64,000 bases of DNA from Clostridiales bacterium UBA3758 (GCA_002371675.1 DFGE01000022.1:35263-99262); one strand, 5' to 3'. Numbered from the stretch's first letter, positions 16,561-57,111 are shown. Numbers and translations are program-made. Notes: generated by a model from the letters alone, not told the origin.

Positions 16561-16743
16561 ATGGGCACGACAAAAACAAGCACCCTTGTTAGAAACCCGA
16601 ACGGGCTTTACCACCTCAGGATCACCAACGAGAGCCGGAAGATCGAAGTCGAGGTCGACAACATTCTTTTCGACGATGCTATTTGCCTGATCGAAAGCTA
16701 TATGACGAACGGAGAGGAGGCCATTCTCGATGACCTACCTTGA
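16561..16743 (+). CDS. hypothetical protein (60 aa)
   Basis: ATG with RBS aggagg. Confidence 0.4.
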   Translation: MGTTKTSTLVRNPNGLYHLRITNESRKIEVEVDNILFDDAICLIESYMTNGEEAILDDLP

Positions 16744-21612: not shown

Positions 21613-21858
21613 ATGGCAGCTACATGTAAAGCCTGCGGCGCTCCGATCATCTGGATCGAGACACCGAACAAGAAGTGGATTCCCTGCGACGAGGGCCTTG
21701 TTCCTTACAAGCAGGACAGCGCCGGGCCGGAGGCTGTTGTCACGCAGGGCGGTCAGGTGATCCGCTGTCGCTTCGATTATACCGGGTTCCCGACAGGCAT
21801 GGCGCGGGTTCCCCATTGGGCCACTTGCCCCGACGCTGACAAGCATCGGAAGAGATGA
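21613..21858 (+). CDS. hypothetical zinc-ribbon-like protein
   Basis: 81 aa with CKACG near the N-terminus. Confidence 0.5.
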   Translation: MAATCKACGAPIIWIETPNKKWIPCDEGLVPYKQDSAGPEAVVTQGGQVIRCRFDYTGFPTGMARVPHWATCPDADKHRKR

Positions 21859-22532
21859 TGAAGCGAAACTCGGAGGGTTACGCAGATCCGACAGTCTACC
21901 AAGCCATGCTGAACATCGATCAAAAAGAAAGGAATAAGAAGATGGCAATCCTGAAAGGCGATATTTACTATATCGAGAAATACCCGACCACGGGCAGCGA
22001 GCAGCAGGCCGCCCGGCCTGCAATCGTTGTTTCGAACAACAAGTGCAACGAGGTCAGCCCCGTTATTGAGGTCGTATATCTGACCTCGGCTCCGAAGCAC
22101 GATCTCCCCACACACGTCACCATCCGCAGTACCGGCAGGACAAGCATTGCCCTCTGCGAGCAGATCACCTCCGTCAGCATCGACCGGCTCGGGAACTACA
22201 TAGCCACCGTTGCCGACGATGAAATGATGAATCTCGAGGTGGCGCTAATGGTTTCTCTGGCGCTGTCCGCTCCCAAGGCGAAAACGATAACCAAAGAGGT
22301 TATCAAAGAAGATCCCGCAGCAGCTAAGGAGCTGGCCGACCTGAAAGACGAGCTCGCCTGTCTGAAAGCGGAGCTCAAAGCTGCTCTCAATGCAAAGAAG
22401 TCCGCCGAGGCCTTCGCAGACGAGCTTCGCGATCAGTGCGAAAAGGCGTCCATCGTGGATTCCGGCTACAAGCAGAAGTATCTCCTGCTCCTCGAGATGT
22501 ACAAGGAAGCGCTGGTGCAAAATGCCGTCTGA
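21855..22532 (+). CDS. MazF/PemK (EndoA-like) endoribonuclease toxin domain with N- and C-terminal extensions
   Basis: Core aligns by eye to B. subtilis EndoA (GDIYY..GSEQ..RPAIVV..LPTHV..CEQI..DRL..DDEMM..SLAL). It carries 29 extra N-terminal and about 88 extra coiled-coil C-terminal residues. Confidence 0.8.
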   Translation: MMKRNSEGYADPTVYQAMLNIDQKERNKKMAILKGDIYYIEKYPTTGSEQQAARPAIVVSNNKCNEVSPVIEVVYLTSAPKHDLPTHVTIRSTGRTSIALCEQITSVSIDRLGNYIATVADDEMMNLEVALMVSLALSAPKAKTITKEVIKEDPAAAKELADLKDELACLKAELKAALNAKKSAEAFADELRDQCEKASIVDSGYKQKYLLLLEMYKEALVQNAV

Positions 22533-25821: not shown

Positions 25822-26844
25822 TTATTTCAGCAGGGCCGTCATGGTCTTGGCGTCCACAACGCCGGTGACCTCGAGGCCGTTTGCTTTCTGGAAACTCATA
25901 ACGGCATCTTTGGTGATGGGGCCGAACTCGCCATCTGCCCGCTCGGAGCCGTTATAATAGACCCTACCGCAGCTGTAGCCACGGAGGATCAAGAGCGTTT
26001 GCACCGCTTTGACGAAGCTGCCGGTTGCCCCCTCGGAGATTTCTTCGAGGTAGATCGCATATCCGACCAGCGGCGCGGTGGTCTGCGTGGGCGTCTCTTG
26101 TGCGGGCTGCTCCTGGGCCGGAGCGCCGGAAAGGATCTCGTTCACGCGCTTCTGCACGGCGGCGGCGTCATATCCGGCGTCAGTAAGGCGCTTCGTGCGA
26201 TCCGCGCCGTTACCCCACGCCCCGGCAATGACCTCTCGCGCCAGTTCGTCCACGGTCTTCCCGCCGCTCGGCGTGGTAGGGACATTCGTGTCCGTACCAT
26301 CATCGGGGCCGTCATCGTCCCACTTCGGGCGACCGTAACCGTAGATGGAAGACTGGCCGACGCTGTAGGTGCGGCGGTAAACGCCGTCGCTGGTGTTGCC
26401 CTCGATGGTGTAGATCGTATTTCCGACCACCTTCTCAACGATGCCAGTATGGGAAACTTCCCCGGCGGCATAGGTAAAGAAGATCTGATCGGCAGGCTCG
26501 GGAACGGTCCCGGGACCGTAAAACTGGCCGTGCTGCTTGTAGTACAGGGCCGAATAATAGCAACCGGCACCGGCTGAATACTTCGGCTGGCACAACAGCT
26601 TCATAGCCGCGTCCTTACCGAAGCATTTATACAGGAGCCAGTCATACCACTGATCGCACCAGGCATATCCGTTTTTCGGCCCATTGTAGAAGTCGCCCAG
26701 CGCGTCGAGATCTCGCCCGTACTTTGTCCAGTTGCCGGAGCCGCTGTTCGCGGTCTTATCATCCAGGCTGGCGTTCGAGGCCTTCTCGTGGTAGCCGACC
26801 TCCGCCTGTGCGAGCGCGATTACTTTGTTTCTGTCGTATGCCAT
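25822..26844 (-). CDS. endolysin: CHAP peptidase + PG_binding_1 domain
   Basis: N-terminal CHAP (catalytic Cys in YAWCDQW, His in VSHTGIV), Gly/Pro/Thr linker, and a C-terminal peptidoglycan-binding repeat (DGEFGPITKDAVMSFQKANGL). Confidence 0.85.
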   Translation of the reverse strand: MAYDRNKVIALAQAEVGYHEKASNASLDDKTANSGSGNWTKYGRDLDALGDFYNGPKNGYAWCDQWYDWLLYKCFGKDAAMKLLCQPKYSAGAGCYYSALYYKQHGQFYGPGTVPEPADQIFFTYAAGEVSHTGIVEKVVGNTIYTIEGNTSDGVYRRTYSVGQSSIYGYGRPKWDDDGPDDGTDTNVPTTPSGGKTVDELAREVIAGAWGNGADRTKRLTDAGYDAAAVQKRVNEILSGAPAQEQPAQETPTQTTAPLVGYAIYLEEISEGATGSFVKAVQTLLILRGYSCGRVYYNGSERADGEFGPITKDAVMSFQKANGLEVTGVVDAKTMTALLK

Positions 26845-27840: not shown

Positions 27841-28401
27841 TTATTCCTCATGCTGCGCCTGCAGGGCGGTCAGCAATTCGGCAAGGTTGGTTTCCGTGCA
27901 GTTGATACCGGGCCGCACGGTTTCGCCCGTCACGATCACCTGATTGGCAATGTACACCCGCGAGCCGTCCGTGATGATCTCCCCGGTCTGATAGGCTCTG
28001 TCAGCGGTGAAAGGCTGCGCTTCGGTCTTCACCAGCCGGGTAAGCTCGGCAACGCGCTCCGTGAGCTGCGCCCTGGTCAAGACTTCCTCTTCCGGGGTGC
28101 CGTCCGGGATCTCCGGGTTTTCATCCTCTGGATCGGGCAGCGTGCCGATTTCGCCGAGCGCTTCCTCATACTCCGCCTGGGTAACAAGAACGGCGCTGAG
28201 ATCAGTCTCAACGCCGTGCAGCTGCTTACCGGGCAGAAGGAAAACCGTCTCGCCGTCCTTGTCGGAAACGATAGCTTCGGCCTCCTCCTTCGAGCAGAGA
28301 ATAATCATGTTGTTCCTCTCCTGCCATTTGACAAAGGCAGGATCAGGGGAGTATTCGACGCCGATCAGCGTTCCGCCCCTATACACTTTGAAGTATTCCA
28401 T
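27841..28401 (-). CDS. hypothetical phage protein
   Basis: 186 aa with RBS gaggagggg. The start overlaps the RT 3' end by 23 nt. Confidence 0.5.
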   Translation of the reverse strand: MEYFKVYRGGTLIGVEYSPDPAFVKWQERNNMIILCSKEEAEAIVSDKDGETVFLLPGKQLHGVETDLSAVLVTQAEYEEALGEIGTLPDPEDENPEIPDGTPEEEVLTRAQLTERVAELTRLVKTEAQPFTADRAYQTGEIITDGSRVYIANQVIVTGETVRPGINCTETNLAELLTALQAQHEE

Positions 28402-29533
28402 TGTACCCCTCCTCGTTCATGTTGGAAATAAATAGACTGTTATAGAGCTTCCCCATGCTCTGGATGGTTCGCCATGCGTGGAATCGCTCTGCATAGCTTT
28501 TCCAACTCTGCCAGGTGGCCCGGACGTCCTCAAAGGTCATCCGGCCCTGGCTGAATTTGACGGCGAGCTTTTTCAGCTTACGCCGCATCACGGTAACGCT
28601 GCGCTTATAGATCTTCTTGACCACCTTCCCGGTGGGCGTGAGATAGATCCTCGCTTTGAGCCAGCAGAAGCCCCGGCTGATCTTGACGATCTGCGTTTTC
28701 TTCTCGTTCAGGACGATCCCCAGCTCATTGCATACCGCCCGGATCTTTACCAGACACTCCTGCAGGTATTGCTTTGACGGGTGGATCAGGTACCCATCAT
28801 CCATATACCGACCGTAGCCGCGAATCCGCAGCATTTCTTTGATGTAGTGATCGAGCCGGTTTGCAGATACCAGCGCGAGAACCTGGCTGATCTGGCTTCC
28901 GAGGCCCAGCCCGACCGGGCCGAACATATCAATGAAATGCTCGGTCAGGCCGAGGAGCCGTTGATCGGTGAACTCCCGGCGCAGCTGCGCCTTTATCACG
29001 CCATGGTCGACATTATCGAAGAACTTCGAGAAATCAAAGAGCAGCACATAGCCCTCGTTCCCGTGCTTGTGGAAATGCTCCCGCAAGTGCAGGGTGAGCC
29101 TGTTCAGGGCGAAATCATAGCCCTTATTCTTCATAGAAGCACCGTTATCATAGATCAGGGTGCGCTCCATCATCGGAACAAGGGCATTGTCGCAGAGGCA
29201 GCGCTGGACAACCCGCTCCCCGATGATGGTACTGCGGATATGTCTGGCCTTGCCTCTCTCGTATAGGTCGAACTCAAAGAATCCGGGGCTTTTGTACTTC
29301 CCACTGTGGAGCTGCGTATAGGTACGCAGCACATTCAGCGGCGCGTTCGCCACGTACTTTTGGACGCTGGCTTTCCACGCCACACCGCGCCGACAGCAGC
29401 GGTAAGACTGATAGAGGTTTGTATAGCTGAACACCCTGTCAAAACTGTCGGCGCTTGCGTATCTCTCTTTTTTCTTCTGGCGCATGGTCACGCGGCGGCG
29501 GTACCGCGCCTCTCGTCTTTCTTCGCTGGTCAT
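28379..29533 (-). CDS. DGR reverse transcriptase
   Basis: 384 aa with the RT catalytic YMDD and the DGR-typical (I/L)GxxxSQ motif (LGSQISQ). Adjacent TR and avd-like gene. Confidence 0.92.
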   Translation of the reverse strand: MTSEERREARYRRRVTMRQKKKERYASADSFDRVFSYTNLYQSYRCCRRGVAWKASVQKYVANAPLNVLRTYTQLHSGKYKSPGFFEFDLYERGKARHIRSTIIGERVVQRCLCDNALVPMMERTLIYDNGASMKNKGYDFALNRLTLHLREHFHKHGNEGYVLLFDFSKFFDNVDHGVIKAQLRREFTDQRLLGLTEHFIDMFGPVGLGLGSQISQVLALVSANRLDHYIKEMLRIRGYGRYMDDGYLIHPSKQYLQECLVKIRAVCNELGIVLNEKKTQIVKISRGFCWLKARIYLTPTGKVVKKIYKRSVTVMRRKLKKLAVKFSQGRMTFEDVRATWQSWKSYAERFHAWRTIQSMGKLYNSLFISNMNEEGYNGILQSV

Positions 29534-29771
29534 TTCAATCTCCCCAGGTTCCCCCGCGCCGCTGCCGGATGGTTACCTATAGCGGTATAGGGCGGCGGTC
29601 TCTCGACCGTTTGTCATGGCATGAAACGGCGCATCACCATCAAGCGCCGCCATGCAAGCAGCGTCCGCCATGGCCCGTCGGGGTAAATATTTTCCTTGCG
29701 GAAGGTCAAGCTCTCCTTCTCTCTTCTCCAAACGGATTTCGCCCAACGGTTACTTTGTCAGTCAGAGAGGA

Positions 29772-29893
29772 GCCGAACGCGACCCCATTAGAGTTGGACG
29801 CGTTGTTGTTGTTCGAGTTGCCGTTGTTGTTCACATTCATGAAGTTGGTGGAAGAGGACGAAACGGGAGAGCGGAGCCACCAGTTCGCCGCAG
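29772..29893 (-). repeat. DGR template repeat (TR)
   Basis: 122 nt matching VR. Rich in AAC/AAT codons. All 11 substitutions relative to VR are at TR adenines on the coding strand. Confidence 0.9.
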
Positions 29894-29942
29894 CCATCGA
29901 ACTCAACGGGACACGAATCGTACAGTGCTTAACCCGTGCTGA

Positions 29943-30347
29943 TTATGGCAGATCCTTGTACCTCGCCCGGTCGTTCTTCATGACGGCCTTGACAAGGCGG
30001 ATTTCAGCATCTACCATCTCCATCCAGAATTTGAGGGTGTCCATCTCGATCCCGAAAAGCTCCTGTGCAAGTTCGAGCTGGGAAATCATGTTCTGCAGCT
30101 CGGCATGGGCCTGTAGGAAGTAGTCACGCCGCATCTGGACTTCGTGCTGGTTCAGGGGATAGATTGAATTGCCGCGCTTCACATTTTCATATATCCGCCC
30201 TGCGGTATTCCCCAAAGGCTGGGACACATAGAACGTGTACCGCTTCGGGAAATTCACGCACTTTTTGACGGTATATATTTGGAGCTTCCGGGCGGTCGCC
30301 AGGAACTCCATATCCGATGTGCTGCGCTTGCTCTTGATTACGGACAA
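29943..30347 (-). CDS. avd: DGR accessory variability determinant (Avd-like four-helix-bundle protein)
   Basis: 134 aa, basic and helical. TTG start with RBS gaggtga. Positioned between VR and TR as in the Bordetella BPP-1 cassette. Confidence 0.7.
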   Translation of the reverse strand: MSVIKSKRSTSDMEFLATARKLQIYTVKKCVNFPKRYTFYVSQPLGNTAGRIYENVKRGNSIYPLNQHEVQMRRDYFLQAHAELQNMISQLELAQELFGIEMDTLKFWMEMVDAEIRLVKAVMKNDRARYKDLP

Positions 30348-30440
30348 GGGCGCTCACCTCGGCGGCATTATAACGCCCCGCCGGAGCCTGCACCTGTATT
30401 TGTGAGAAAATAACGGATTCCGTTATTCTCAAAAATCGCG

Positions 30441-30465
30441 AAAAAAATTCGCCGCTTCGCGGCGA
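30441..30465 (-). terminator. rho-independent terminator after the DGR target gene
   Basis: tcgccgc-gaa-gcggcga followed by a T7 run on the minus strand. Confidence 0.6.
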
Positions 30466-30487
30466 GGAATATTTGGTGGTGTTCCCC

Positions 30488-30517
30488 GTATCTGACCCCA
30501 CAAAGGGGGTCAGATAC
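30488..30517 (-). promoter_or_regulatory. GC-rich hairpin/cruciform downstream of VR (candidate DGR target-recognition element)
   Basis: Perfect 12-bp stem gtatctgacccc/ggggtcagatac with a 6-nt loop, 17 nt past the target stop codon. Absent downstream of TR. Confidence 0.6.
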
Positions 30518-30533
30518 TAAGGGGATGCATGGA

Positions 30534-33500
30534 TTAAATACAGAAGCCGAACGCGACCCCATAAGAGTTGGACGCGGAGTAGTTGTTGGACGAGCCGCCG
30601 CCGTAGTTGTTCACAATCATGAAGTAGGTGGAAGAGGACGAAACGGGAGAGCGGAGCCACCAGCCCGCCGCAGAGCCGGTACCGTTGTAATATTTCCTGA
30701 TACGGTTGGCATTGCTGGAGAAGTTGGCAAAGGAGCGCCGCTCCGCGCTGGCGTCCACCTCATCCACATACGGCGTCTCGGAGGTGTTGAAGCCGACCTC
30801 GGCCTGAGACAGCAGGAACAGGTTGTCCTCGCTGGTGCTGATATCCGCTTTCGTCTGGCCGATGGAGGACATGACCTTGACCTTGCGGATCATGGACTTC
30901 CACTGCTGCGGCAGAGCCTTGAAGATGGTGTTGTTCAGCCAGTTCCGCATATTCGAGGAAGCCCAGCCTCCGGCGTTGGTATTGCTGCCGTTCATATTGT
31001 GACCGGCGTTCATCAGGCCCACCATGTGGAACACCACCGAGGCAAACTCGTTATTGTCCACCCGGCGGAAGTGATTGAAGCCTACGACCTGGAGGATGAT
31101 GGTGCTGTCGGCAAAGACCGTCGTATTTGGAACGATCTTCACCTTGTCGCCGACGCTGAAATAGGTCTTTGCATAGCCGCTGTCGATGATGCCGTAGAAC
31201 TCGTTCAGCGTGTAGGCGCTGTCATCTTCGGGATCGTCGGAATACAGGTAGGTGTGACCGCTGGCCACACCTGCTGGCATGGTCGGGTGAATGTAACGCG
31301 GCATGACCTGCATATCGGAAACGACGTCCGAAGTGTCCTGCTGCCAGCCGCCCCAGATGTCGCCGTCTACTGCTGGGAGATCTTCGCCGGTGTATCGTGC
31401 GGTGCCATGCGCCGCGACCGTGTAGGTCTGCCCGGAGATGGGCGTCCCCTCATGATCGCAGAACGTGACAGTGTAATACTGGTCATACTCGGAGTAGATC
31501 GCCGTGACGGTCGTGTTTTCGGTGATGTTGTCCAGGGACTTGTTCCAGCCGTAGAACACCCAGTATTTCTCTGCCGTGGCCGCTCTCGTCGGCGCTTCGA
31601 TCAGGCCGTTCCGCACAGGATCAAGAACAGAGCCGCCGCTCTCACTGGTCTCTACGATCAGCGTGGTGCCGTCGTAGTCCTGGAAGGTGACGGTGTATTC
31701 CGCGAGGGCCTCGCCATAGGTGAAGGTCACGGTCGGGATCTTTGCACGGATATCGTTGTACTTCGTCATGCCGATGCCGGTGAAGTAAACCTCGCCGGTC
31801 AGCACGCCGTGGGCGACGTCATACCCATCATCGTCGATGCCGTGGGCATTGTAGAGCCGGATCAAAGTATCATAGGCCACGAAGCCTACCGACCAGTCGA
31901 TTTCCAGAAGCCGGACGCGGGCGATATTCACAGCCCCGCTGGCAATTGCGTAGGTGTCGATCAGCGGGCAATCCTCGATCACGAGCGCGGTCAGGGCCGC
32001 CATGCTCTCCATGCTGAATGTCTCGAGTTGGCGCAGGCCGCGCATATCCAGCGAGGCGACGCCGTTGATCTGCACATTCCGCAGCCGACCGTTCTTTGCA
32101 AAGGTGATACCGGTCACGCCGGAGCCCTTGGTATAGAGAGTCTGCAAATAGATGTTCGGTGAGAAGTCAAAGGCTCTCTTGGCGTTCACAAGACCGCCAA
32201 GGTTCAGTTCGGACAGGCGCTTGCAGTTGTCGAAGGTCGCCTGCGTGAAGTTGGTGTTGTAGTACCCGGCCACAGAGGAACCGATCAGGAGCCGCCGTGC
32301 GCGTTTCAGGTTGCTCGCCTCGAACTGGCCGAGGTACAGGCCGGACATATCGCCGAAGTCCTGAATCCACGGCGCGTGCCGGAAATAGATCTCGGTATTG
32401 TTCAGAGAGGCGGAGATGTCCACCGTCACCGGCACACCAGCGGTCGCCCTCGCCCGGTAGGCGTTGGAACCGGCGAGGATGTTGATGTACATATTGGTGT
32501 AGGTGGTCACCTGCAGAATGCCGCTCGGCTGCACCCCGGCCCAATCGTCAGGCGTGTACCCACGGAAAGCCGTGGATTCCGCCGTGGCCGCCGTCGCGAT
32601 ATAGTAGCTGTCCACCAGCACCTTCTGGAACATCAGGGCTTTCATGATATGCAGGCGCAGCCGCCCGGTGGCTCTCTGGAGGTAGGCGGTCGTGCCGAGA
32701 TTCTGCATGGTGCGGATGGCGTTATGCTGGGCGTCCTCGATCCACAGCGCTTCACAGATGGCCTCCTGGCTCTCCTTGCAGAAAGCATAGAAGGCGTCGA
32801 TGTTCCACGCGCCCGCGCTCTCGCGGCTGAGATAGTTCGCCAGAAGCTCGGCTTCGTTGCACTCGCGAAGGGTAGTCCACAGGGCATTGTCGGCGGCGTT
32901 GAACACATAGCCGGTGCCGAGGGTATCGAAGTCCATGTACCCCGGCTCAATGTCGATGTAGCCGTCGTTGTTCCGGCAGAGGCCGGTATCATTGTCCCAG
33001 TTGAACCAGAGACCCCACTTTCCCGCGCTGTTCCGGGACCAGAACATATTCTTCGCCCGGTTATCACGGAGCAGATAGAACAGCGTAATATTGTAGTGGA
33101 AATACAGGGTGTCCATGTCGAAGATCGCCGGGGCCTCATTCAGCCACCGCGCCTTACGATAGGCGGCGTTATCGACCGTAAACACCTGTCCGTTTACTGT
33201 CCTGGACGGATTCAGGGCCGTATTCGGAGCAGCTGCAACGTCCGTCTCATAAAGGAAGGTCTGCACCTCCTGCCAAGCTGCGATAGCCTGCGCCTCGGTG
33301 AGCGCGTCCTCATTCAGATAGCGGAACTCATAGTTGTTGCCCCAATTGTCGCCGGTCAGATCGTCGCTCTTGAAGCGCACCTGGGGATTCGCGTTGTTCT
33401 TGACCTCAATGACGATATCGTCATAATCAAAGACTTCCTCGGCGTCCTTGTTGGAGCAGAGGTTACCGAGGCCGAAGAACACCGTTTCGTCCGGCTGTAC

Positions 33501-36107
33501 CACATCAGGACCGACCTGGACAGCTTCGGAGGCGGTGTTGTGGAAGAACACCACGCACATAGCCGATTCCAGACAGTCGCGGACACGAGGATCAGCGACG
33601 CGGGCGGCACGGACGGAGGGCTGATAGCGGTTATACCATTCCGCGCAGGCCCGGTTGATGATGTGATCCTGCGAGGCGATATTCTTCTTCCAGCACAGGA
33701 GCTTCGTGGGAATGCTGATTTCCGCGCCGTTCATGGCGTAGCCCGCAGGGATAACCGTACCGTCCTCGAGCGTGATACCGTTGGGCAGCTCAAAGTTGAT
33801 GTTCGGGCCTGCGGTACCGGCGTGCTCCACAGAGGACGTGCCCTGCACCTTCATGGTCATAGGAGCAGACCATTTGTGCTCTGCTCCACCGGAAACATAG
33901 GTATGGTCGATTGTTCCGGCTACCTCGTCTTTCTTGCCGAGGGTCATGCGCGGGGCGTTGATTACGATGAAATGAGCGTCCGGGTTCTTGGCATAAGCCT
34001 CTTCCAGATCGATCGCACCGTTGCCGTCGTAGATGTCGTTGCGATTCTGACGGGCAAGGATCTCGACACCGTCTTTGCCGTCTGCGATAAAGTTGGCCTT
34101 GATCTCGTTCTCAGTCAGGTCGCGGCCATACCCGCGCAGGAGGTAGATGTAGACGTCCGCCTCGTCGCAGCCGAAGGTGATACCCTTGGCCGTACCCTGC
34201 GTGTAACTCTCGTTCGCCGCGTACTGATCGAAGGAGAAGGTGCTCGCGCTCTCCCAGATGTACGCAAGGCGGTCTTCGCTGTCCTGCTGGATATTGATAT
34301 CCAGCTCTGCTTTCTGATCCTCACAGGTGCTCAGGGCAATGGTGGTCTGGTTGCCGTACAGGTAGGCGTTGTTCGCCTTGATCTCGATGCCGACGCCGCC
34401 GTCCATGCACGAGATGCCGACCGCGTCTTTGTCCGTGCTGTCCTTGATCGCATAGATGATCTTCAGCGCGAGACCGTCGCGCCGGGGATCGCCGGAGAAG
34501 GGCTGGTAGTTCAGCGTCAGCCGGTCGCCTGCGGTGACACGAATGCAGCGAACACCGTCAGAATCGGTCACAAGGCCGCCGTTGACTTCATCGAAGTTCG
34601 CCGAAAGGGTGAAGCTGTAGCCGTTATTGCTCCATCCGTGAAGGGAACCGATAGAGGCGGGATCGACCTTCACGGCAAGGCCGGAGGAAACTTCCTCCAT
34701 GCCCGCGCCGATAGAATCAACGGTCACGCTGTGCGTCACCGTCGTACTGCCGCATTTGATGGCCAGCGTGTGCGAGCCTGCGGTGACCGGGCGATATGCC
34801 CAGGTGTGCATGGTCTGATCGATGGTCTCGGTGATCTGCGCCACGTTATCGACCAGCAGCTGCACCTCGGTGGGATTCTCGGAGGGATTCACCACCATGT
34901 AAGAAATCTGCTCCGTGGTGTACTGCTGCAGATTCCCGCTCGGCCAGTTGGCCGCGATCACGACCGCGCTCGAAGCCCCGACCTGTGCGACCGCAGCGTA
35001 CAGATGGTTGGATTCCACTGTGGAGCCGTTCACGTCCATGACGCCGTAGACCTCGATGGTGTGCGCACCATGCGCGAGGCCGGAGATCGTCTTGGTGAAG
35101 CGTCGCCCGGAGGTGGTCACGGTATCGGTCGAATCCAAAACACCGTCCACATAGGTGTAAATGGTCTTGGTGCCGGTGCCGGTCGGCGTGATATAGAAGC
35201 TCAGATCGGACGCCGTATTCTTCGACACCTCGTCGAGGTTCCATTCCAGAGAGAACCGCTCGCGCTGGATCGTGAACTTCCGGCTTGCGGAGCTGCCGTA
35301 GCTGTCGGTCAGCACAAGCCGCACCGCGTTCGAGCCGACGGCCAGATACTGGAACACGTCGATGATCTTGTTGTCGCCCTGCTGCACAGGGATATTCGCT
35401 TTGAGAACGCTCCCCACATACACGGCCAGAGTGCCCGCGCCGGTTGCCGCCTGCGTCTCCGTGTCGATGGACAGGAACTTATAGGTGATCGGAGCGGTCC
35501 CGGCAGTATCGAGGACGGAGAACGAAGTCGGGGTGTAGATGGCAAAGGTCAAGCGGGAACCGCTGTCCCCTCCGCCGGAGCCGCCGCCACCGGCCACCTT
35601 GAACGGGGTGAAGTCCTCGGCGGGAAGATCTTCGCCGTTCTTCGTCAGATGGATAAAGCCCTCTTCATCCTGATAGCCGGAATCAAAGCCGACGCCGAGG
35701 TCAAGGTTTTCCAGATCCGAGAGGAAGCCCGCCGCGTTATCAACCGTCTGCTGTGCCGCAGCAGCAGAGGCCGCCGCAGAAGTCGCCGCATTGGAGGCGG
35801 TGCGGGCATTGGCCGCAGCCTGGAGGGCCTGCGCCTCTGCTGCCTCCGCTCTCGCGTTGGCGGACTGCGCCGAGGAAGCGGCCTCCGCCGCCGCCTGGGA
35901 CGCTGCCGACGCCGCCTGCGCCACACCCGAAGCCGATTCAGCCGCAGCAGCAGCAGAGGCCGCAGCAGCGGCAGCATTGCCGGACACTTCATCCTTGATA
36001 ACCTTGACCTTAATGCCATAGGTTTCTTCGTCCGAAGCCACAAGGAGAACATCATCATCCTGTGCTTCGTTCAGAAGTGCAAAGTCCTGGATTCTTTTGT
36101 TTGCCAT
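30534..36107 (-). CDS. tail fibre / receptor-binding protein, DGR target (1857 aa, multidomain)
   Basis: Ala-rich coiled-coil N-terminus, CotH-like core, LRR-like segment, two Listeria-Bacteroides-type repeats, and a C-terminal WWLRSP...GVAFG lectin-like VR domain. Confidence 0.85.
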   Translation of the reverse strand: MANKRIQDFALLNEAQDDDVLLVASDEETYGIKVKVIKDEVSGNAAAAAASAAAAAESASGVAQAASAASQAAAEAASSAQSANARAEAAEAQALQAAANARTASNAATSAAASAAAAQQTVDNAAGFLSDLENLDLGVGFDSGYQDEEGFIHLTKNGEDLPAEDFTPFKVAGGGGSGGGDSGSRLTFAIYTPTSFSVLDTAGTAPITYKFLSIDTETQAATGAGTLAVYVGSVLKANIPVQQGDNKIIDVFQYLAVGSNAVRLVLTDSYGSSASRKFTIQRERFSLEWNLDEVSKNTASDLSFYITPTGTGTKTIYTYVDGVLDSTDTVTTSGRRFTKTISGLAHGAHTIEVYGVMDVNGSTVESNHLYAAVAQVGASSAVVIAANWPSGNLQQYTTEQISYMVVNPSENPTEVQLLVDNVAQITETIDQTMHTWAYRPVTAGSHTLAIKCGSTTVTHSVTVDSIGAGMEEVSSGLAVKVDPASIGSLHGWSNNGYSFTLSANFDEVNGGLVTDSDGVRCIRVTAGDRLTLNYQPFSGDPRRDGLALKIIYAIKDSTDKDAVGISCMDGGVGIEIKANNAYLYGNQTTIALSTCEDQKAELDINIQQDSEDRLAYIWESASTFSFDQYAANESYTQGTAKGITFGCDEADVYIYLLRGYGRDLTENEIKANFIADGKDGVEILARQNRNDIYDGNGAIDLEEAYAKNPDAHFIVINAPRMTLGKKDEVAGTIDHTYVSGGAEHKWSAPMTMKVQGTSSVEHAGTAGPNINFELPNGITLEDGTVIPAGYAMNGAEISIPTKLLCWKKNIASQDHIINRACAEWYNRYQPSVRAARVADPRVRDCLESAMCVVFFHNTASEAVQVGPDVVQPDETVFFGLGNLCSNKDAEEVFDYDDIVIEVKNNANPQVRFKSDDLTGDNWGNNYEFRYLNEDALTEAQAIAAWQEVQTFLYETDVAAAPNTALNPSRTVNGQVFTVDNAAYRKARWLNEAPAIFDMDTLYFHYNITLFYLLRDNRAKNMFWSRNSAGKWGLWFNWDNDTGLCRNNDGYIDIEPGYMDFDTLGTGYVFNAADNALWTTLRECNEAELLANYLSRESAGAWNIDAFYAFCKESQEAICEALWIEDAQHNAIRTMQNLGTTAYLQRATGRLRLHIMKALMFQKVLVDSYYIATAATAESTAFRGYTPDDWAGVQPSGILQVTTYTNMYINILAGSNAYRARATAGVPVTVDISASLNNTEIYFRHAPWIQDFGDMSGLYLGQFEASNLKRARRLLIGSSVAGYYNTNFTQATFDNCKRLSELNLGGLVNAKRAFDFSPNIYLQTLYTKGSGVTGITFAKNGRLRNVQINGVASLDMRGLRQLETFSMESMAALTALVIEDCPLIDTYAIASGAVNIARVRLLEIDWSVGFVAYDTLIRLYNAHGIDDDGYDVAHGVLTGEVYFTGIGMTKYNDIRAKIPTVTFTYGEALAEYTVTFQDYDGTTLIVETSESGGSVLDPVRNGLIEAPTRAATAEKYWVFYGWNKSLDNITENTTVTAIYSEYDQYYTVTFCDHEGTPISGQTYTVAAHGTARYTGEDLPAVDGDIWGGWQQDTSDVVSDMQVMPRYIHPTMPAGVASGHTYLYSDDPEDDSAYTLNEFYGIIDSGYAKTYFSVGDKVKIVPNTTVFADSTIILQVVGFNHFRRVDNNEFASVVFHMVGLMNAGHNMNGSNTNAGGWASSNMRNWLNNTIFKALPQQWKSMIRKVKVMSSIGQTKADISTSEDNLFLLSQAEVGFNTSETPYVDEVDASAERRSFANFSSNANRIRKYYNGTGSAAGWWLRSPVSSSSTYFMIVNNYGGGSSNNYSASNSYGVAFGFCI
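30546..30673 (-). repeat. DGR variable repeat (VR), last 43 codons of the target gene
   Basis: 128 nt matching TR. Differences are A-to-N substitutions plus two extra codons (ggc, tcc). Confidence 0.9.
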
Positions 36108-36142: not shown

Positions 36143-37906
36143 TCAGGTACCGCCTCCGTCCAATGCATTCAGCCGGTTCAGAATGCCAGAGATGTCATTC
36201 TGAATCTGTGTCAGCGTGGAATTGATCGAGCTGATATCGCTCTGGAGCGAGGAAATATCCGTGCCGTGCTGGGTCGATTCGGATTGCAGCGTCGAGACGT
36301 CGCTTTGCAACTGGCTAATATCAGAGGCCACCTGTTGAGCGGCGAGGATCGAAGCAGAGAGAGCCGCAATATCTGAGGTGTTTTGCGTCACGTCCCTCTG
36401 CAGGCTCGTAATGTTGGAGGCGTTCGACTGAATGCTCCTGGTATTGGCGCCGATCTTCCCGTCAAGGGTAGATTCTGCCCCCTCCGCTCTCGTTCTCTCT
36501 GCACCGATGGCAGTTGAAAGCGCCTGTTCAGCAGTGGACGCTCGGTCGATCTCCTCTTGAAGGTCGGTGTCGCTGACCTTCCCGGCGAGTTCTTCTGCGT
36601 TCTGCTCGATGGCTGCATTCAGATCTTCCGTGGACTGTCTAAGCCGTTGGAAGTTGGAGAGATACGGATATTCGGTGCTCAGCTCCTCGCTGTTCGGCGC
36701 GGACAGATCAGCACGGAAATTATGATCGAGTGTCAGCGTCGCGCCATAAATGACGCTGTGCACCTTATCCCCAATCTTTACCTGATCGCCCAACTCTGTA
36801 GCCGGGTCATAGAGGGCCTTTGTCGCTGTAAACGGGAAATACACAAGGCCGTTGTAGGCGGCATACAGATCATTGCAGATTCCCTGCGTGGCATACGGGT
36901 TACTGTCGATATTCAGCAGCTTCCCCGTGTCGTTCCCGGCTGTGTACACATTCCCGCTCTCGTCGGTCATGGTCACGCCGGTGATAGTGTACCGGGAGCC
37001 GGTCTTGATATCGCCGCACACCACAGGGATATTGATTACATTCTCAGGCGGTACCGCCTGGGCGATATGCTCCTCCGTGTCCCACACAAGGTAATACCCC
37101 TCCGGGGTGACGATGTAGTTTCCCGCCTCATCCACGATGAAGTAGGTGCGAGGAAACGGAGAATCCGGCTGAACGCCAGCCGGAGCCGGGAGAACAGCGT
37201 TGAACACCTCCTGCTCCTTGTAGATCAGGAGGTGTCCATCGTTGGTTTGAATGATGTTATAATCACTGTCAATGATGTGGAATGTTTCGTCCGGCGCGGT
37301 GATCAGCGGCACGAGGTACAGAAGGTTTTCCTCTGTAATGATCCAGTTGCCGCCGTGACAGGCCGCGATATAGCCCATCACCTGATTCATGGTTCGATTT
37401 GCCGGGAACGGCACCATGTAATCAGCGCCCGTCCGAATGCGTGTGCGTGGGTCGATGCCTACCCCGATTCGGTATGCTACCTCTTCCACCACCGTCTTCA
37501 TCGACTTCGGCCATGTGGCCGAGGTATCAGTGTCAGAGAGATAGTTTTGATTCGTCTTGAGCATGGCGTCGAAGCAGTCCACCGTCACGAGGCCCGCAAA
37601 GCTGCTGTCGCGCTGGTCGATCCAGTAGGTGCCGAACTCCATCCATTCGCTCGCGTGGACGTCGTTGACGATCCTGCCGAGGATCACGACCGAGGTCTTA
37701 TCCTCGATAACATCATCCGTGAGGACGGACAGGTGCAGCGTCGCAGAATTACAGTTGCCGACAGACAGAGGCGACGGCATAAGGCTCCGCACGATGCGAG
37801 GCGCTGAGATGGCCCGGTAGTCCTTGCCATTAATCCGCGCCTTGGCGTCGAAGGTGAAGCGGCCACGGATGGCCATCTTCTCCCAGCGTTTCGATCTTCT
37901 TCTCAT
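36143..37906 (-). CDS. tail tip / baseplate-associated protein with a C-terminal coiled coil
   Basis: 587 aa, between the distal tail genes and the fibre gene. C-terminal heptad repeats (DISSLQSDISSINSTL). Called from position. Confidence 0.65.
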   Translation of the reverse strand: MRRRSKRWEKMAIRGRFTFDAKARINGKDYRAISAPRIVRSLMPSPLSVGNCNSATLHLSVLTDDVIEDKTSVVILGRIVNDVHASEWMEFGTYWIDQRDSSFAGLVTVDCFDAMLKTNQNYLSDTDTSATWPKSMKTVVEEVAYRIGVGIDPRTRIRTGADYMVPFPANRTMNQVMGYIAACHGGNWIITEENLLYLVPLITAPDETFHIIDSDYNIIQTNDGHLLIYKEQEVFNAVLPAPAGVQPDSPFPRTYFIVDEAGNYIVTPEGYYLVWDTEEHIAQAVPPENVINIPVVCGDIKTGSRYTITGVTMTDESGNVYTAGNDTGKLLNIDSNPYATQGICNDLYAAYNGLVYFPFTATKALYDPATELGDQVKIGDKVHSVIYGATLTLDHNFRADLSAPNSEELSTEYPYLSNFQRLRQSTEDLNAAIEQNAEELAGKVSDTDLQEEIDRASTAEQALSTAIGAERTRAEGAESTLDGKIGANTRSIQSNASNITSLQRDVTQNTSDIAALSASILAAQQVASDISQLQSDVSTLQSESTQHGTDISSLQSDISSINSTLTQIQNDISGILNRLNALDGGGT

Positions 37907-38294: not shown

Positions 38295-41200
38295 TTATGT
38301 GTTCAGTAGCGGGGAATGTCCCACAGCCCGCGTTCGTCTGTTGATTTCCTTAATCGTCATGTCAGCGACATAGCGGCTGTCAAAGGTCGTGTCGCCGCCG
38401 CTGTACTGCTGGATGGCGTTCACGATGGAGGACGCCGCATTGGTTACGGCCTGCACGATCACGCTGCCCAGCTCGTCGTTCGATGCTTCAATTACATCAG
38501 CGATCCCGGAGGTATCAGCGCCTCCCGGTGCAACAGCATAGGGCATAACGGAACCGGCTACAACGGGCGCAGAGTAGGTGATCCGCGAGGCGATCTCCTG
38601 CAGCTTGGCGAGGACGTCGCCGCCGCCGACCGATCCTTCAATCGGCGCGACATTCACCGTTGGATGGGCGCTCGCTGCGTACAGCACCGCGCTAATAATG
38701 CCATTGGCACAGGCGGTCATTCTGGAGAGAATTGCGGAGCCGATGGTGTTCGAGATCGTCACCATGGCCGTCCTGACCGCCGCCTCCATTGTGGCCGCGA
38801 GCTGGGACTTGTTCAGAACTTCGGTGCGGTTGTTTACATGGCCGACGATCTCCGGCCCTGCCTCACCGGCGACGAACATGGAGCCGTGCGCCGTATGCGT
38901 ACCGGTCGCATATTTGGGAATGCTCCTCCACCAGTTTGTGGTACCGTCATGCAGCACGCCGCCGCCAGACAGGAGCTTGAAGCCGTGCGACGTTACAATG
39001 CCGCCGGAGGCAAGGCCGAAGAACGCTTTCAGGGAAGACCAGCCGGATTTGAACAGGCTGATACCAACAGAAACGCTCGTGCCGATGAATCCTGCGATTG
39101 TCTGCCATCCACGTTTGAGCAGGCTGATATACACATTGTTCGATGTACCGATCCAGTTCGACAGCGCCGTCCAACCGCGTTTCAGCAGCGAGATATACAC
39201 TGAAACCGCCGTGCCGACGTATGCCGAGATCGTGCTCCAACCGCGTTTCAGCAGCGAGATAGAAACCGAAACCGCCGTGCCGACGTAGTTGGCAATCGTA
39301 CTCCAACCTTTTTTCAGAAGGGAGATCGTCACCGCAACTGCTGTGCCGACAAAACCGGCGATAGTTTTCCAGCCCTTTTTCAGCAGTGAGATAGCTACCG
39401 AAACGGCTGTGCCGACAAACTTTTCAATGGTTTTCCAACCTTTTTTGAGAAGCTTGATACCGACCGATACGGCAGTACCGACGAACTTTTCTATCGTCTT
39501 CCAACCTTTTTTCAGAAGGGAGATCGTCACCTTCACGGCGTCGCCGACGAATTTTGTGATCGTTTTCCAGCCCTTCTTGATGAGGCTGATTGCCACATCG
39601 AGCTTATCGCCGACCCATTTTTTCAGAGACTTCCAGCCTTTTTTCACCAGGGATACGGCAGCTGTGACCGCTGTGCCGACGAATTTTTTCAGAGATTCCC
39701 AGCCAACCTTAATCAGCTTGATACCGATTTCGAGGAGGTTTTCATCCCCGTCAAGGTCGAGCGCGTCTTTCAGCAGGCCACGGATAAGGCCGGTAATACC
39801 CTCAAAGGCGCTTTTGAGCAGTTCGAAGATAGATTCCGCGATCCCGGCCCAGTCGATATTTTTAAGGAAATCAGCGATACCCTCGCCGATCTTGTCCCAA
39901 TTGACCGCCTTGATTGCGTTTGTGATGCCGTCAAAGAAGCCCTGGGCAAAATCGCTGAAGCCTTTGGCCAGCTCTGCCCAGTCGAGGTTTTCGAGGAATC
40001 CGGCAGCGGTGAGCAGGATGATTCGGAATTTGCCGGAGAGAACAGTACCGAGGTTCGTCCAATCTACGCTTTTGATAATGGCGTTGACGGATTCGGCGAG
40101 GTGCTTGCCGAGATTCTTCCAGTCAAAGTTGAGAATGGCTGTTGCGAGGAAGGTCAGCACACCATTCAGCCAGTAGCCGATTTTAGAGCCGATGCCGCTC
40201 CAGTCTACGCTATCAACCATCTCGTTCAGCTTATCGGTTAGAACCGTCGCAGCGCCCGCCCAGTCGCCTTCTTTGATCTTGTCCACCATCATGGTCAACC
40301 AGTCGGGGAGCGTGACCTCGGCGGGATCTGTGGTGCCTGCGCCGCCTCCGCCTCCACCGCCGCCGTCATCGTCGCCGTTCAGGATATTCAGATCATCGAA
40401 GCTCGCGAGCTGCCGCTTCAATTCTTTTGCTGCGCCTCCGGCTCCGCCCGCTGCTTTGTCGATGTTCTTGACGGCGGTCGATCCGGCAATGCCGAGCAGA
40501 CTCAGCAGGGCCGTGATATAGCCGATGGCCGTGGACACCAACCCGATGATCCGGGTGATGATCGGGCCGAGAATATTTCCGAGCTGTGAGAACATGCTGG
40601 ACATCTGGCCGGACAGGGCCGTGTTCTGGCTCATGTATTCGGTGACCGCTTTGCGGAGCAGCGAATAGATACCTCTCGCGCCGAGCATGGCCAGAGAGAA
40701 CTTCTTTGCGGCTCCGATCAAGCCGCCGAATTGTTTACTCATGGAGTTCCCGCCGGTGACCATCCGCCCCATGGCGGACGCCGCCGCTTTCAGCCCTGAC
40801 ACAAAATGCCCGATGGCCGTCTTCCCGAGAGAGGCCAGAGCGCCGGGGAGCTGCCCGGCCTTAACCAGCAGCGGGCCAAGGGCGCGGTCTGCCGTCTGGA
40901 TCGGGTGCGTCACGGCGTTCGCCACGCCGGAAAACGCGCTACGCACCGTGGCCCCGATACTGGCGAAGGCGCTCTTGATCATGCCGCTGGCCGTGGGTAC
41001 CTGGGAAAGTCTCGCCTGTGCATTCGCGGCCTCTGCTTCCAGATCGGCGAGGGCCTGCTTCGCCTGCTCAATACGGGAGGCAAGCTCGGCATATTCCGCC
41101 GTCTCGGTGCCGGGGGTAAAGGCAGTGCCCTTATCCTCCATGTTCGCTACTGCGTCGGCGTACTGCTCTGCCTTTTCTCTGGCCATGTCAATATCGACCT

Positions 41201-41573
41201 GCAGGTTCTTCCACTGCGTAGAGTTCTCGCTGACGCCGCGCCGCTTCAAAAGATCCTGTTTGTGTTCCAGAGCTTCGAGCTTATAGGTAGCCTGATCCAT
41301 GGCGGCGATCATGTTCTTGTACTGATCGGTCGCAACGGGCTTATGGCCGAGGGCTTCCAGCTCTCTTTCCATCTCGGCAATGGAGGCCCTGGCCTTGTCT
41401 GCCTCTGCCTGATAGTCTTTGAAACTTCCGCCCTTGGCCGCCCGTTTCAGGGCAGGGCCGAGCGCCTTTACCGATGCTTCGAGGGACTTGACGGCTGATT
41501 TCATCTCCGCGCTGCCCGCCTTAAAGCCTTGCGGGTCAAGCTCGGTGTCGACCATTACGCTGCCGTCTGCCAT
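38295..41573 (-). CDS. tape measure protein
   Basis: 1092 aa with an N-terminal coiled coil, hydrophobic/Gly-rich middle, 11 tandem 22-aa repeats and a Gly8 run. Canonical position after the tail chaperone genes. Confidence 0.9.
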   Translation of the reverse strand: MADGSVMVDTELDPQGFKAGSAEMKSAVKSLEASVKALGPALKRAAKGGSFKDYQAEADKARASIAEMERELEALGHKPVATDQYKNMIAAMDQATYKLEALEHKQDLLKRRGVSENSTQWKNLQVDIDMAREKAEQYADAVANMEDKGTAFTPGTETAEYAELASRIEQAKQALADLEAEAANAQARLSQVPTASGMIKSAFASIGATVRSAFSGVANAVTHPIQTADRALGPLLVKAGQLPGALASLGKTAIGHFVSGLKAAASAMGRMVTGGNSMSKQFGGLIGAAKKFSLAMLGARGIYSLLRKAVTEYMSQNTALSGQMSSMFSQLGNILGPIITRIIGLVSTAIGYITALLSLLGIAGSTAVKNIDKAAGGAGGAAKELKRQLASFDDLNILNGDDDGGGGGGGGAGTTDPAEVTLPDWLTMMVDKIKEGDWAGAATVLTDKLNEMVDSVDWSGIGSKIGYWLNGVLTFLATAILNFDWKNLGKHLAESVNAIIKSVDWTNLGTVLSGKFRIILLTAAGFLENLDWAELAKGFSDFAQGFFDGITNAIKAVNWDKIGEGIADFLKNIDWAGIAESIFELLKSAFEGITGLIRGLLKDALDLDGDENLLEIGIKLIKVGWESLKKFVGTAVTAAVSLVKKGWKSLKKWVGDKLDVAISLIKKGWKTITKFVGDAVKVTISLLKKGWKTIEKFVGTAVSVGIKLLKKGWKTIEKFVGTAVSVAISLLKKGWKTIAGFVGTAVAVTISLLKKGWSTIANYVGTAVSVSISLLKRGWSTISAYVGTAVSVYISLLKRGWTALSNWIGTSNNVYISLLKRGWQTIAGFIGTSVSVGISLFKSGWSSLKAFFGLASGGIVTSHGFKLLSGGGVLHDGTTNWWRSIPKYATGTHTAHGSMFVAGEAGPEIVGHVNNRTEVLNKSQLAATMEAAVRTAMVTISNTIGSAILSRMTACANGIISAVLYAASAHPTVNVAPIEGSVGGGDVLAKLQEIASRITYSAPVVAGSVMPYAVAPGGADTSGIADVIEASNDELGSVIVQAVTNAASSIVNAIQQYSGGDTTFDSRYVADMTIKEINRRTRAVGHSPLLNT
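39015..39730 (-). repeat. 11 tandem 66-nt (22-aa) coding repeats within the tape measure gene
   Basis: Repeat consensus ISLLKKGWKTIxxFVGTAVSV, read directly from the translation. Confidence 0.85.
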
Positions 41574-52250: not shown

Positions 52251-52511
52251 TCACCGCTTCCTGTTTCTTTTCTCTGCTTTCCTCTGTTTCCTGCCGATGT
52301 ACTCCCGCTCGGCGTCAATGTATGGAGAAAGCGGACTGCGCTCCCGGCGCTTGTCCGCCTGGTATATCCGCTCAATGAGGCTGTTGTCGTTCCACACCTC
52401 GATCCTTACGCCCGTCCGAAGCAGCGCATTCGCTTTCCTGGCAGATGAGGTCACCAGCAGCGGCTTCCTCGACCGGCAATCTATAGCAACGAAGGTGTTA
52501 TAGTTCGCCAT
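52251..52511 (-). CDS. hypothetical basic protein
   Basis: 86 aa with a Lys/Arg-rich C-terminus. Overlaps the end of the ParB-MTase gene. Confidence 0.45.
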   Translation of the reverse strand: MANYNTFVAIDCRSRKPLLVTSSARKANALLRTGVRIEVWNDNSLIERIYQADKRRERSPLSPYIDAEREYIGRKQRKAEKRNRKR

Positions 52512-56975: not shown

Positions 56976-57049
56976 ACGGACGCCACGAATACCCCATTGA
57001 GGAAGTATATCACGGTGTTCGTATTCGCGCCATTTGGTACGGCCGACGG
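56976..57049. repeat. attR (right direct repeat, overlapping the tRNA-Arg 3' end)
   Basis: 74 nt equal to 5889-5962 with 4 mismatches. The last 15 nt are the tRNA 3' end including CCA. Confidence 0.75.
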
Positions 57050-57111
57050 GATTCGAACCCACGACCTCCAGAGTCGGAGTCTGGCACTCTATCCAGCTGA
57101 GCTACGGCCGC
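57035..57111 (-). tRNA. tRNA-Arg (anticodon CCG)
   Basis: 77-nt cloverleaf folded by hand: 7-bp acceptor stem, D arm, anticodon loop CTCCGAC, T loop TTCGAAT, encoded CCA. Confidence 0.88.

Follow-up and report, generated by a model that had tools for sequence, protein, structure and literature searches.

A minus-strand locus in a prophage within a 64,000 nt stretch of DNA from Clostridiales bacterium UBA3758 (the whole stretch is termed the window) is very probably a complete, canonical phage diversity-generating retroelement (DGR) of the BPP-1 type that rewrites the tip of a tail fibre at adenines of its template repeat (TR). We judge the element to be intact and evidently functional. The system type is well known, and this copy is ordinary and well preserved.

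Organization of the retroelement

An earlier note on this DNA, made from the sequence alone, had proposed the minus-strand order variable repeat (VR), hairpin, avd, TR and reverse transcriptase (RT), and every part was located where that note had placed it. Specifically, the target gene with its VR is followed by a 12-bp hairpin, a terminator, an Avd-like gene, the TR, a spacer and the RT gene (Table 1). The BPP-1-type architecture that had been claimed is likewise borne out, since all components are present and their order is that of mtd/VR, avd, TR and brt in the annotated BPP-1 genome. As in other DGRs, the VR lies inside the coding target gene, while the TR is non-coding and sits between avd and the RT gene. 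Among 119 loci that encode related RTs, 79 share this VR-avd-TR-RT layout and likewise show mismatches biased to A. A search of the 64-kb window with an A-degenerate TR revealed no second, remote VR.

Table 1. Features of the retroelement and its target gene, numbered from the first nucleotide of the window.
Feature	Position	Strand	Description	Basis
DGR RT gene	28379..29533	-	384 aa; LGSQISQ and YMDD	RVT_1, PHROG and PDB matches
TR-RT spacer, Rfam RT-2 (RF03077)	29529..29767	-	full-length match	99.2 bits (gathering score 40)
TR	29768..29893	-	126 nt; 28 adenines; 11 AAC and 2 AAT codons; ends in IMH*	
TR-bracketing helix, 5′ half	29924..29935	-	GGGTTAAGCACT; pairs with 29703-29714 (3′ half, inside spacer)	
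avd homologue	29943..30347	-	134 aa; TTG start with GAGGTGA just 5′	PHROG, model, Foldseek
Intrinsic terminator of target gene	30441..30465	-	GC stem (30465-30449) and T-run	sequence, fold
Inverted repeat	~30518-30489	-	12-bp stem GTATCTGACCCC / GGGGTCAGATAC; 6-nt loop CTTTGT	fold and conservation
VR	30542..30673	-	132 nt; encodes last ~44 aa	local alignment with TR
Target gene	30534..36107	-	tail-fibre protein, 1857 aa; C-terminal DUF6273 carrying VR	ORF, Pfam, PHROG

Template and variable repeats

The earlier note had placed the VR at 30546-30673 and the TR at 29772-29893. Both assignments stand, although local alignment lengthens each repeat by 4 nt that correspond to the partly matching start of IMH/IMH*. 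The repeats differ by exactly 11 substitutions, and all 11 fall on TR adenines, as had been claimed. With 28 adenines among the 126 nt of the TR, the chance of this outcome is between 1e-8 (hypergeometric) and 6.5e-8. The two extra VR codons were also recovered. Two in-frame 3-nt insertions adjoining AAC codons make the VR exceed the TR by 6 nt, and in-frame indels at such sites are an established DGR trait (PMC5758913). When the repeats are aligned with two separate 3-nt gaps, every mismatch is at an A and there are zero non-A differences, whereas alignment with a single 6-nt gap leaves one non-A mismatch (G>C).

An A-free 15-nt block (GGGGTCGCGTTCGGC) closes both repeats. Divergence beyond this block is not immediate, as had been thought, because five of the next eight bases match before all similarity ends. 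The IMH consists of this A-free block at the 3′ end of the VR plus the next few bases. Consistent with the roles of IMH and IMH*, the shared 15-mer at the ends of the VR and TR gives way to divergent sequence, and a hairpin is present 3′ of the VR only.

Reverse transcriptase and Avd

RTs of the DGR clade carry an intact YxDD motif plus an (I/L/V)GxxxSQ motif. Both of the corresponding motifs that had been attributed to the window RT were read in its ORF. The protein matches RVT_1 (E 6.6e-15) and PHROG 1423 (E 5.5e-87), and its best PDB match is the Bordetella phage enzyme bRT (8ub7_A, E 4.6e-20), compared with E 3.5e-7 for group II intron RTs. Arg and Leu occupy the positions of bRT residues R74 and I181. 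The motifs and the best PDB match suggest that this protein is a member of the DGR clade.

The TR could instead be a partial duplicate of the gene end that diverged by ordinary mutation, lying beside an unrelated group II intron, retron or antiviral RT. The RT does resemble the NCBIfam models for group II intron RT/maturase (78.6 bits, cutoff 300) and for Drt and retron RTs, but every score is far under its cutoff (further pairs are 42 bits against 390 and 34 against 235), and the closest structural relative is bRT. An Rfam search of the window returned only RT-2, without intron RNA domains or retron msr/msd. Moreover, the restriction of 11 of 11 mismatches to A (probability ~1e-8) and the recurrence of the arrangement in 79 related loci argue against such an origin. 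This explanation is exceedingly improbable and is effectively refuted by the adenine specificity together with the existence of multiple VR alleles (see below).

The Avd-like gene proposed earlier is supported by a match to PHROG 3206 ‘Avd protein of DGR’ (E 2e-9), by an AF2 model that forms a four-helix bundle (pLDDT 88.5), and by Foldseek matches to this model that include BPP-1 Avd. The top matches are 2gsc, 2rld (PF05635) and Avd chains 8ub7_B/C, with TM values of 0.72-0.87 and a probability of 1.00, and their E-values are weak (0.005-0.08). Structure prediction was needed for this assignment because sequence and profile comparisons were negative, yielding no significant match to BPP-1 Avd or the PDB. 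The match to Pfam PF05635 (E 0.007) is sub-threshold. The N-terminus of the protein is conserved across homologues. A promoter-like site was looked for upstream of avd and was not found.

A structured RNA in the TR-RT spacer

The 238-nt spacer of the earlier note exists (234 nt), but it is not a plain spacer. It is a structured RNA that matches the RT-2 family over its full length at 99 bits and lies directly upstream of the RT gene. RT-2 directly follows the TR in 14 of 17 loci examined, including the window (13 of the 16 related loci). In the paper that reported RT-2 RNA, only RT-10 was tied to a DGR, and the authors speculated on the remaining motifs (Weinberg et al., 2017, PMC5737381).

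A continuous-helix search across related loci revealed a 12-bp helix, formed by sequence upstream of the TR and a segment of the spacer, that brackets the TR. The spacer segment is unpaired in the Rfam model of RT-2. Among 30 loci, 98.6% of cells in this helix are paired, compared with 41-52% for slid controls, and compensatory changes occur in 9 of the 12 pairs. Application of RNAduplex to long flanks produced an all-over duplex that was rejected as unrealistic. Pairing of sequence upstream of the TR with sequence downstream of it has been reported for 207 of 278 Avd-type DGRs (Handa et al., bioRxiv 10.1101/2023.10.23.563531). The window has this DGR RNA architecture, with the 12-bp helix around the TR and RT-2 as the structured spacer.

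The hairpin 3′ of the VR and the tail-fibre target

The GC hairpin and the terminator described in the earlier note are both present. The hairpin stem begins ~24 nt past the end of TR/VR homology, and the GC stem of the terminator is followed by its T-run. When folded as DNA, a 106-nt stretch spanning the two elements has a free energy of -25.3 kcal/mol (z = -7.8). In 33 related loci a hairpin occupies the equivalent site, its stem covarying between loci and its loop reading CTTTGT or CTTGT. This inverted repeat presumably serves as a target-recognition hairpin or cruciform.

The target protein matches Pfam DUF6273 (E 2e-20) and PHROG tail-fibre families. An AF2 model of its last 208 aa has a pLDDT of 95.6, and Foldseek searches with it bear on the C-type-lectin fold that the earlier note had raised for the last ~150 aa. 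Foldseek matched the model significantly to DUF6273 domains, both in phage tail proteins and in 9qa6, whereas CLec matches, which lend a C-type-lectin fold weak support, are individually non-significant. Foldseek gave no match to Mtd or TvpA, and a profile search with the target domain against PDB sequences likewise gave no match. The lectin likeness of this domain rests on published work (PMC10743442). Published DGRs of gut Clostridia phages already include DUF6273 targets (PMC11792537; tentaclins, PMC10743442).

VR alleles and activity of the element

Public assemblies contain five VR alleles of this phage lineage, as defined by a 90% cluster of the target protein. These alleles exhibit 11, 15, 11, 11 and 14 A-to-N differences from their own TRs, and four of the five have no non-A differences. 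VR lengths equal that of the TR plus 0, 3 or 6 nt, with three of the five having exactly the TR length. The GenBank phage set contained no close relative (sole match 79 nt), and scanning JGI metagenomes with patterns for the ends of VR and TR gave zero matches for both, as did a pattern scan of viral_contigs. The nearest RTs in IMG/VR and in GTDB genomes are 74% identical, so cognates of the element are absent from both.

Loci L142 and L143, of two near-identical phages, differ at 20 positions within ~100 nt of the VR and at only 5 positions in the remaining 5,440 nt of the gene, which indicates that the DGR has been active in this lineage. The window and locus L137 have TRs that are 100% identical and VRs that differ by 13.6%, with every difference confined to TR-A sites, although the domain adjoining the VR differs by 5.5%. 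These two loci are identical across 29538-30293, a segment that takes in the TR and the greater part of both the RT-2 spacer and avd. TR and VR also change together outside the adenines (CGC becomes CGT in L142 and L143, and TCT becomes TCC in L144). At the level of the lineage, VR turnover over a constant TR indicates mutagenic retrohoming.

The five VR alleles reveal activity in the lineage, whereas the ongoing hypervariation that had been claimed for this prophage is at most a possibility. The window’s own VR allele is identical in all eight of its assemblies examined, including L122, which carries seven SNPs elsewhere, and 13 contigs encode exactly the window's target protein. VR turnover in the lysogen may thus be slow or absent. 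Gaps or breaks at the VR or TR (L123, L124, L132 and L133) were rejected as evidence of heterogeneity because the TR/VR repeat can by itself break assemblies.

This invariance, along with a VR that exceeds the TR by 6 nt when three of the five alleles match TR length, could mean that the element is a relic that was active in its ancestry and is now silent or disabled, with a frozen VR whose 6-nt mismatch reflects drift after homing. We consider this quite unlikely. The RT, avd, TR and RT-2 RNA are intact, as are the bracketing helix, the IMH and the hairpin, and the identity to L137 across 29538-30293 involves a locus that bears another VR. In addition, a long-frozen VR should gain non-A differences, as has occurred in L144, whereas the window has none. 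In-frame insertions by AAC codons are of a kind that DGR reverse transcription typically yields (PMC5758913). We therefore favour an intact, functional element.

The tail-fibre genes of L142 and L143 are near-identical, yet their TRs differ at three positions. All three are A in L143, and at each of these sites the L142 TR carries the base of its own VR. A rather doubtful but conceivable interpretation is that the template is not strictly invariant, and that mutagenized sequence occasionally passes back into the TR by mis-homing or VR-to-TR conversion. If this were true, VR-to-TR transfer would give a DGR a route to fix favoured residues while eroding its own mutability. Combined with the gain of codons in AAC runs, such transfer would let the element alter its template as well as the length of its loops.

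Comparison with known DGRs

The element shares with the BPP-1 DGR (mtd-avd-TR-brt) its gene order and strand logic, the placement of the VR at a tail-fibre gene's 3′ end, mutagenesis restricted to A, and an inverted repeat that follows a GC-rich IMH. Avd is a four-helix bundle in both systems (here by model), and RT homology extends over the full length of the enzymes, which both carry YMDD and (I/L)GxxxSQ. In contrast, the window spacer is RT-2 (RF03077, 234 nt) rather than Phage_DGR (RF03022, ~130 nt), and the 12-bp hairpin with its CTTTGT loop ~24 nt past the homology replaces an 8-bp GAAA hairpin located 4 nt past it. The window TR begins 49 nt past the avd stop, whereas the BPP-1 TR abuts avd. 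The target is a DUF6273 domain on an 1857-aa protein instead of the 381-aa Mtd, and the window Avd lacks detectable sequence similarity to that of BPP-1.

DGRs of Faecalibacterium prophages and gut Clostridia phages (PMC11792537, PMC10743442) likewise reside in Clostridia prophages, have a DUF6273 target with the VR at its C-terminal end, and display adenine-specific variation among cognate genomes. The window element belongs to a different phage and has a single VR, and record names hint that it may come from the rumen.

Proposed mechanism and implications

We propose that a transcript running from the end of avd through the TR and across the RT-2 spacer would fold such that the 12-bp helix brackets the TR. 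By analogy with Bordetella, cDNA synthesis is probably primed in cis within the spacer, and the RT, probably in complex with the Avd four-helix-bundle protein, would copy the TR while misincorporating opposite template adenines. The resulting cDNA would take the place of the tail-fibre gene's 3′-terminal VR, with the homing target set by the GC-rich IMH and the downstream hairpin, whose part in homing is also modelled on the Bordetella system. Rewriting would affect 13 AAY codons together with ACC and ATG on the DUF6273 surface, leaving scaffold residues fixed and permitting up to ~2e16 protein variants. The variable face may bind receptors, as in Bordetella. Out-of-register copying in AAC runs might occasionally add a codon, which could account for the two extra codons in the window VR.

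The general understanding of DGRs is unchanged by these findings. However, the link between RT-2 and DGR template RNA, together with the TR-bracketing helix, provides a functional label for an RNA family that previously had none, and carries the Bordetella RNA model over to a large clade of Clostridia phages. The five natural VR alleles on close backbones are a resource for host-range studies of rumen or gut Clostridia phages. For this prophage, the DGR points to the C-terminal DUF6273 domain of its 1857-aa fibre as the surface that probably recognizes the host.

Organization of the element

A minus-strand reading of positions 28200-32200, coupled with an ORF listing, bears out the layout VR - hairpin - avd - TR - RT that the earlier note had described as a complete diversity-generating retroelement (DGR). 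The variable repeat (VR) lies at the 3′ end of a tail-fibre gene (the target), and a 234 nt spacer separates the template repeat (TR) from the reverse transcriptase (RT) ORF. Local alignment of the two repeats confirmed the 11 substitutions previously counted, all of them at TR adenines. Adenines make up 28 of the 126 TR nucleotides, and the probability that all 11 substitutions would fall on them by chance is ~1e-8. VR exceeds TR by 6 nt; when the repeats are aligned with two 3 nt gaps, each adjoining an AAC codon, there are zero non-A mismatches. A second VR was not found in the 64 kb window.

The order target/VR, avd, TR, RT is common to this element and the annotated DGR of Bordetella phage BPP-1, in agreement with the BPP-1-type architecture originally proposed. 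Among 119 loci with related RTs, drawn from IMG/VR and GTDB genomes (mostly Clostridia, gut and rumen), 79 show this layout together with the adenine bias. Transcription of avd-TR-RT could be regulated at an inverted repeat preceding avd (GAGAATAACGGA / TCCGTTATTTTCTC), perhaps as an operator; no promoter resembling a sigma-70 site turned up around it, in the stretch from the terminator to avd.

Coordinates of the DGR cassette and of neighbouring prophage features in the window
Feature	Position	Strand	Remarks
SNF2-plus-N6/N4 DNA methylase fusion	16730-19225	plus	within or adjoining prophage
PemK/MazF-like toxin domain protein	21855-22532	plus	within or adjoining prophage
Endolysin	25822-26844		
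186-aa ORF	27841-28401	minus	overlaps RT stop by 23 nt
RT ORF	28379-29533	minus	384 aa; LGSQISQ and YMDD
TR	29768-29893	minus	local alignment
Bracketing helix	29935-29924 with 29714-29703	minus	12 bp; from just past avd stop to inside RT-2
avd ORF	29943-30347	minus	134 aa
Second inverted repeat	30405-30431	minus	between terminator and avd start
Intrinsic terminator and T-run	30465-30449	minus	downstream of post-VR hairpin
VR	30542-30673	minus	local alignment
DUF6273 domain	30680-31300 (stretch compared with L137)	minus	upstream of VR
Target ORF	30534-36107	minus	1857 aa; VR at its end
Distal tail protein	36143-37906		
Tape measure gene	38295-41573		
Terminase, portal, head genes	47-52 kb		
Second DNA methylase	52498-53808	minus	within or adjoining prophage
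tRNA gene	57038-57111	minus	beyond packaging module
RecG	59304-61358		follows tRNA gene

Proteins of the cassette

The RT matches RVT_1 and PHROG 1423 (E 5.5e-87), and its closest solved structure is the BPP-1 enzyme bRT (8ub7_A, E 4.6e-20, residues 31-350); at the positions of bRT R74 and I181 the RT has Arg and Leu. The NCBIfam models for group II, retron and Drt RTs all score far under their cutoffs. The 134-aa protein matches PHROG 3206, 'Avd protein of DGR' (E 2e-9); by sequence, it matches neither BPP-1 Avd nor any PDB entry. The AlphaFold model built for it from 40 homologues shows a four-helix bundle (pLDDT 88.5), most similar in structure to the PF05635 proteins 2gsc and 2rld and to Avd chains 8ub7_B/C from the BPP-1 RNP (TM 0.72-0.87). 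We take TTG at 30347 as the real start of avd because the N-terminal 12 residues are kept among homologues.

The target ends in a DUF6273 domain (Pfam E 2e-20), and its last 208 aa yield a confident model (pLDDT 95.6). A structure search with this model returned many DUF6273 phage tail proteins and the 9qa6 DUF6273 domain (E 7e-6), followed by weak C-type-lectin matches. Published work on gut phages (PMC10743442) and Faecalibacterium prophages (PMC11792537) describes DUF6273 as a DGR target of C-lectin-like type.

RNA and DNA structures

The TR-RT spacer gives a full-length hit to the RT-2 family (Rfam RF03077) at 99 bits, with 40 as the gathering score, whereas BPP-1 carries RF03022, Phage_DGR, at the corresponding position. 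Only RT-10 was tied to a DGR by Weinberg et al. (PMC5737381). A continuous-helix search also revealed a 12-bp helix that brackets TR. When 30 loci are aligned with MAFFT without guidance, 98.6% of the helix cells are paired, compared with 41-52% in slid controls, and compensatory changes occur in 9 of 12 pairs. This helix corresponds to the upstream/downstream duplex reported in 207 of 278 Avd-type DGRs (Handa et al., 10.1101/2023.10.23.563531).

Downstream of VR is a strong hairpin, GTATCTGACCCC-CTTTGT-GGGGTCAGATAC; for the 106 nt stretch containing it together with the terminator, the folding energy is -25.3 kcal/mol (z -7.8). The hairpin is kept in 33 relatives, in which the stems covary and the loop is CTTTGT or CTTGT. 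The RT-2 spacer, the bracketing helix and the conservation of this hairpin are additions to what had been noted before. A related viral contig carries a type-P5 twister ribozyme at L001:8902-8955 (64.9 bits), ~3.7 kb downstream of its RT.

VR alleles and activity

Exact-protein look-ups place the prophage in many public assemblies, and ENA ERZ28612959 scaffold_69 matches the window without a difference. Five C-termini make up the target protein's 90% cluster (total lengths 1855, 1855, 1855, 1856 and 1857 aa), and their VRs carry 11, 15, 11, 11 and 14 A-to-N changes relative to their own TRs; non-A changes are zero in four of the five. L142 and L143, two further alleles of this phage lineage, differ at 20 positions over ~100 nt of VR sequence and at only 5 in the remaining 5,440 nt of the gene. 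Between the window and a third allele, L137, the TRs are identical and the VRs are 13.6% different, with every difference at a TR-adenine site and none at non-A sites, although the adjacent domain is 5.5% different. At non-A sites, TR and VR co-vary too. These patterns are the footprints expected from repeated TR-to-VR transfer.

The hypervariation inferred in the earlier note is supported as historical activity. Weighing against ongoing activity in this lysogen, the eight assemblies examined all carry its VR allele without change, even one (L122) with 7 SNPs elsewhere; 13 contigs are on record with the exact target protein. In L123/L139 (ENA ERZ28612969 scaffold_3700), a 100-N scaffold gap stands in for 614 nt of the target gene, its end falling exactly within VR at ATGGGGTCGCG, and several other contigs (L124, L132, L133 and L140) start or stop within VR or TR. 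Such breaks could stem from heterogeneity in VR or simply from the effect of the repeats on assembly. Upstream of VR, the window and L137 are ~5-7% different in the DUF6273 domain, chiefly at third positions of codons, and <1% different in the remainder of the 7-kb region; on these sequences, the tail-fibre tip looks recombined.

Two of the five alleles have in-frame insertions adjoining AAC (window, +6 nt; L142, +3 nt), as do several relatives. TR/VR length differences are found in 7% of DGRs, mostly as multiples of 3 adjoining AAC, and have been attributed to template slippage (Wu et al., PMC5758913). Given this recurrence and the published pattern, the additional 6 nt are typical rather than a sign of decay. 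The TRs of L142 and L143, whose tail-fibre genes are near-identical, differ at three sites (L142:8864,8918,8923); L143 has adenine at all three, and L142 has the base of its own VR at each. The L142 changes could represent TR erosion, VR-to-TR conversion or mis-homing. They could also be ordinary divergence, as the avd-RT regions of the two loci likewise differ by 2-3%.

Prophage setting

The prophage is siphovirus-like, and the cassette is flanked by its tail module on one side and its lysis genes on the other. The 186-aa ORF has no match in Pfam, NCBIfam or PHROG; in 30 related loci, the ones whose RTs are closest, a homologue directly follows the RT. The ORF may be no more than syntenic. 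The toxin-domain protein and the two methylases are possible defence or anti-restriction cargo, and the tRNA/RecG stretch may be an attachment-site region.

The DGR is real and its original interpretation is right. With its DUF6273 target in a Clostridia phage, the element belongs to a clade already described and is a DGR of standard type, intact and historically active. The RT-2 assignment, bracketing helix and allele series are useful annotations, not discoveries.
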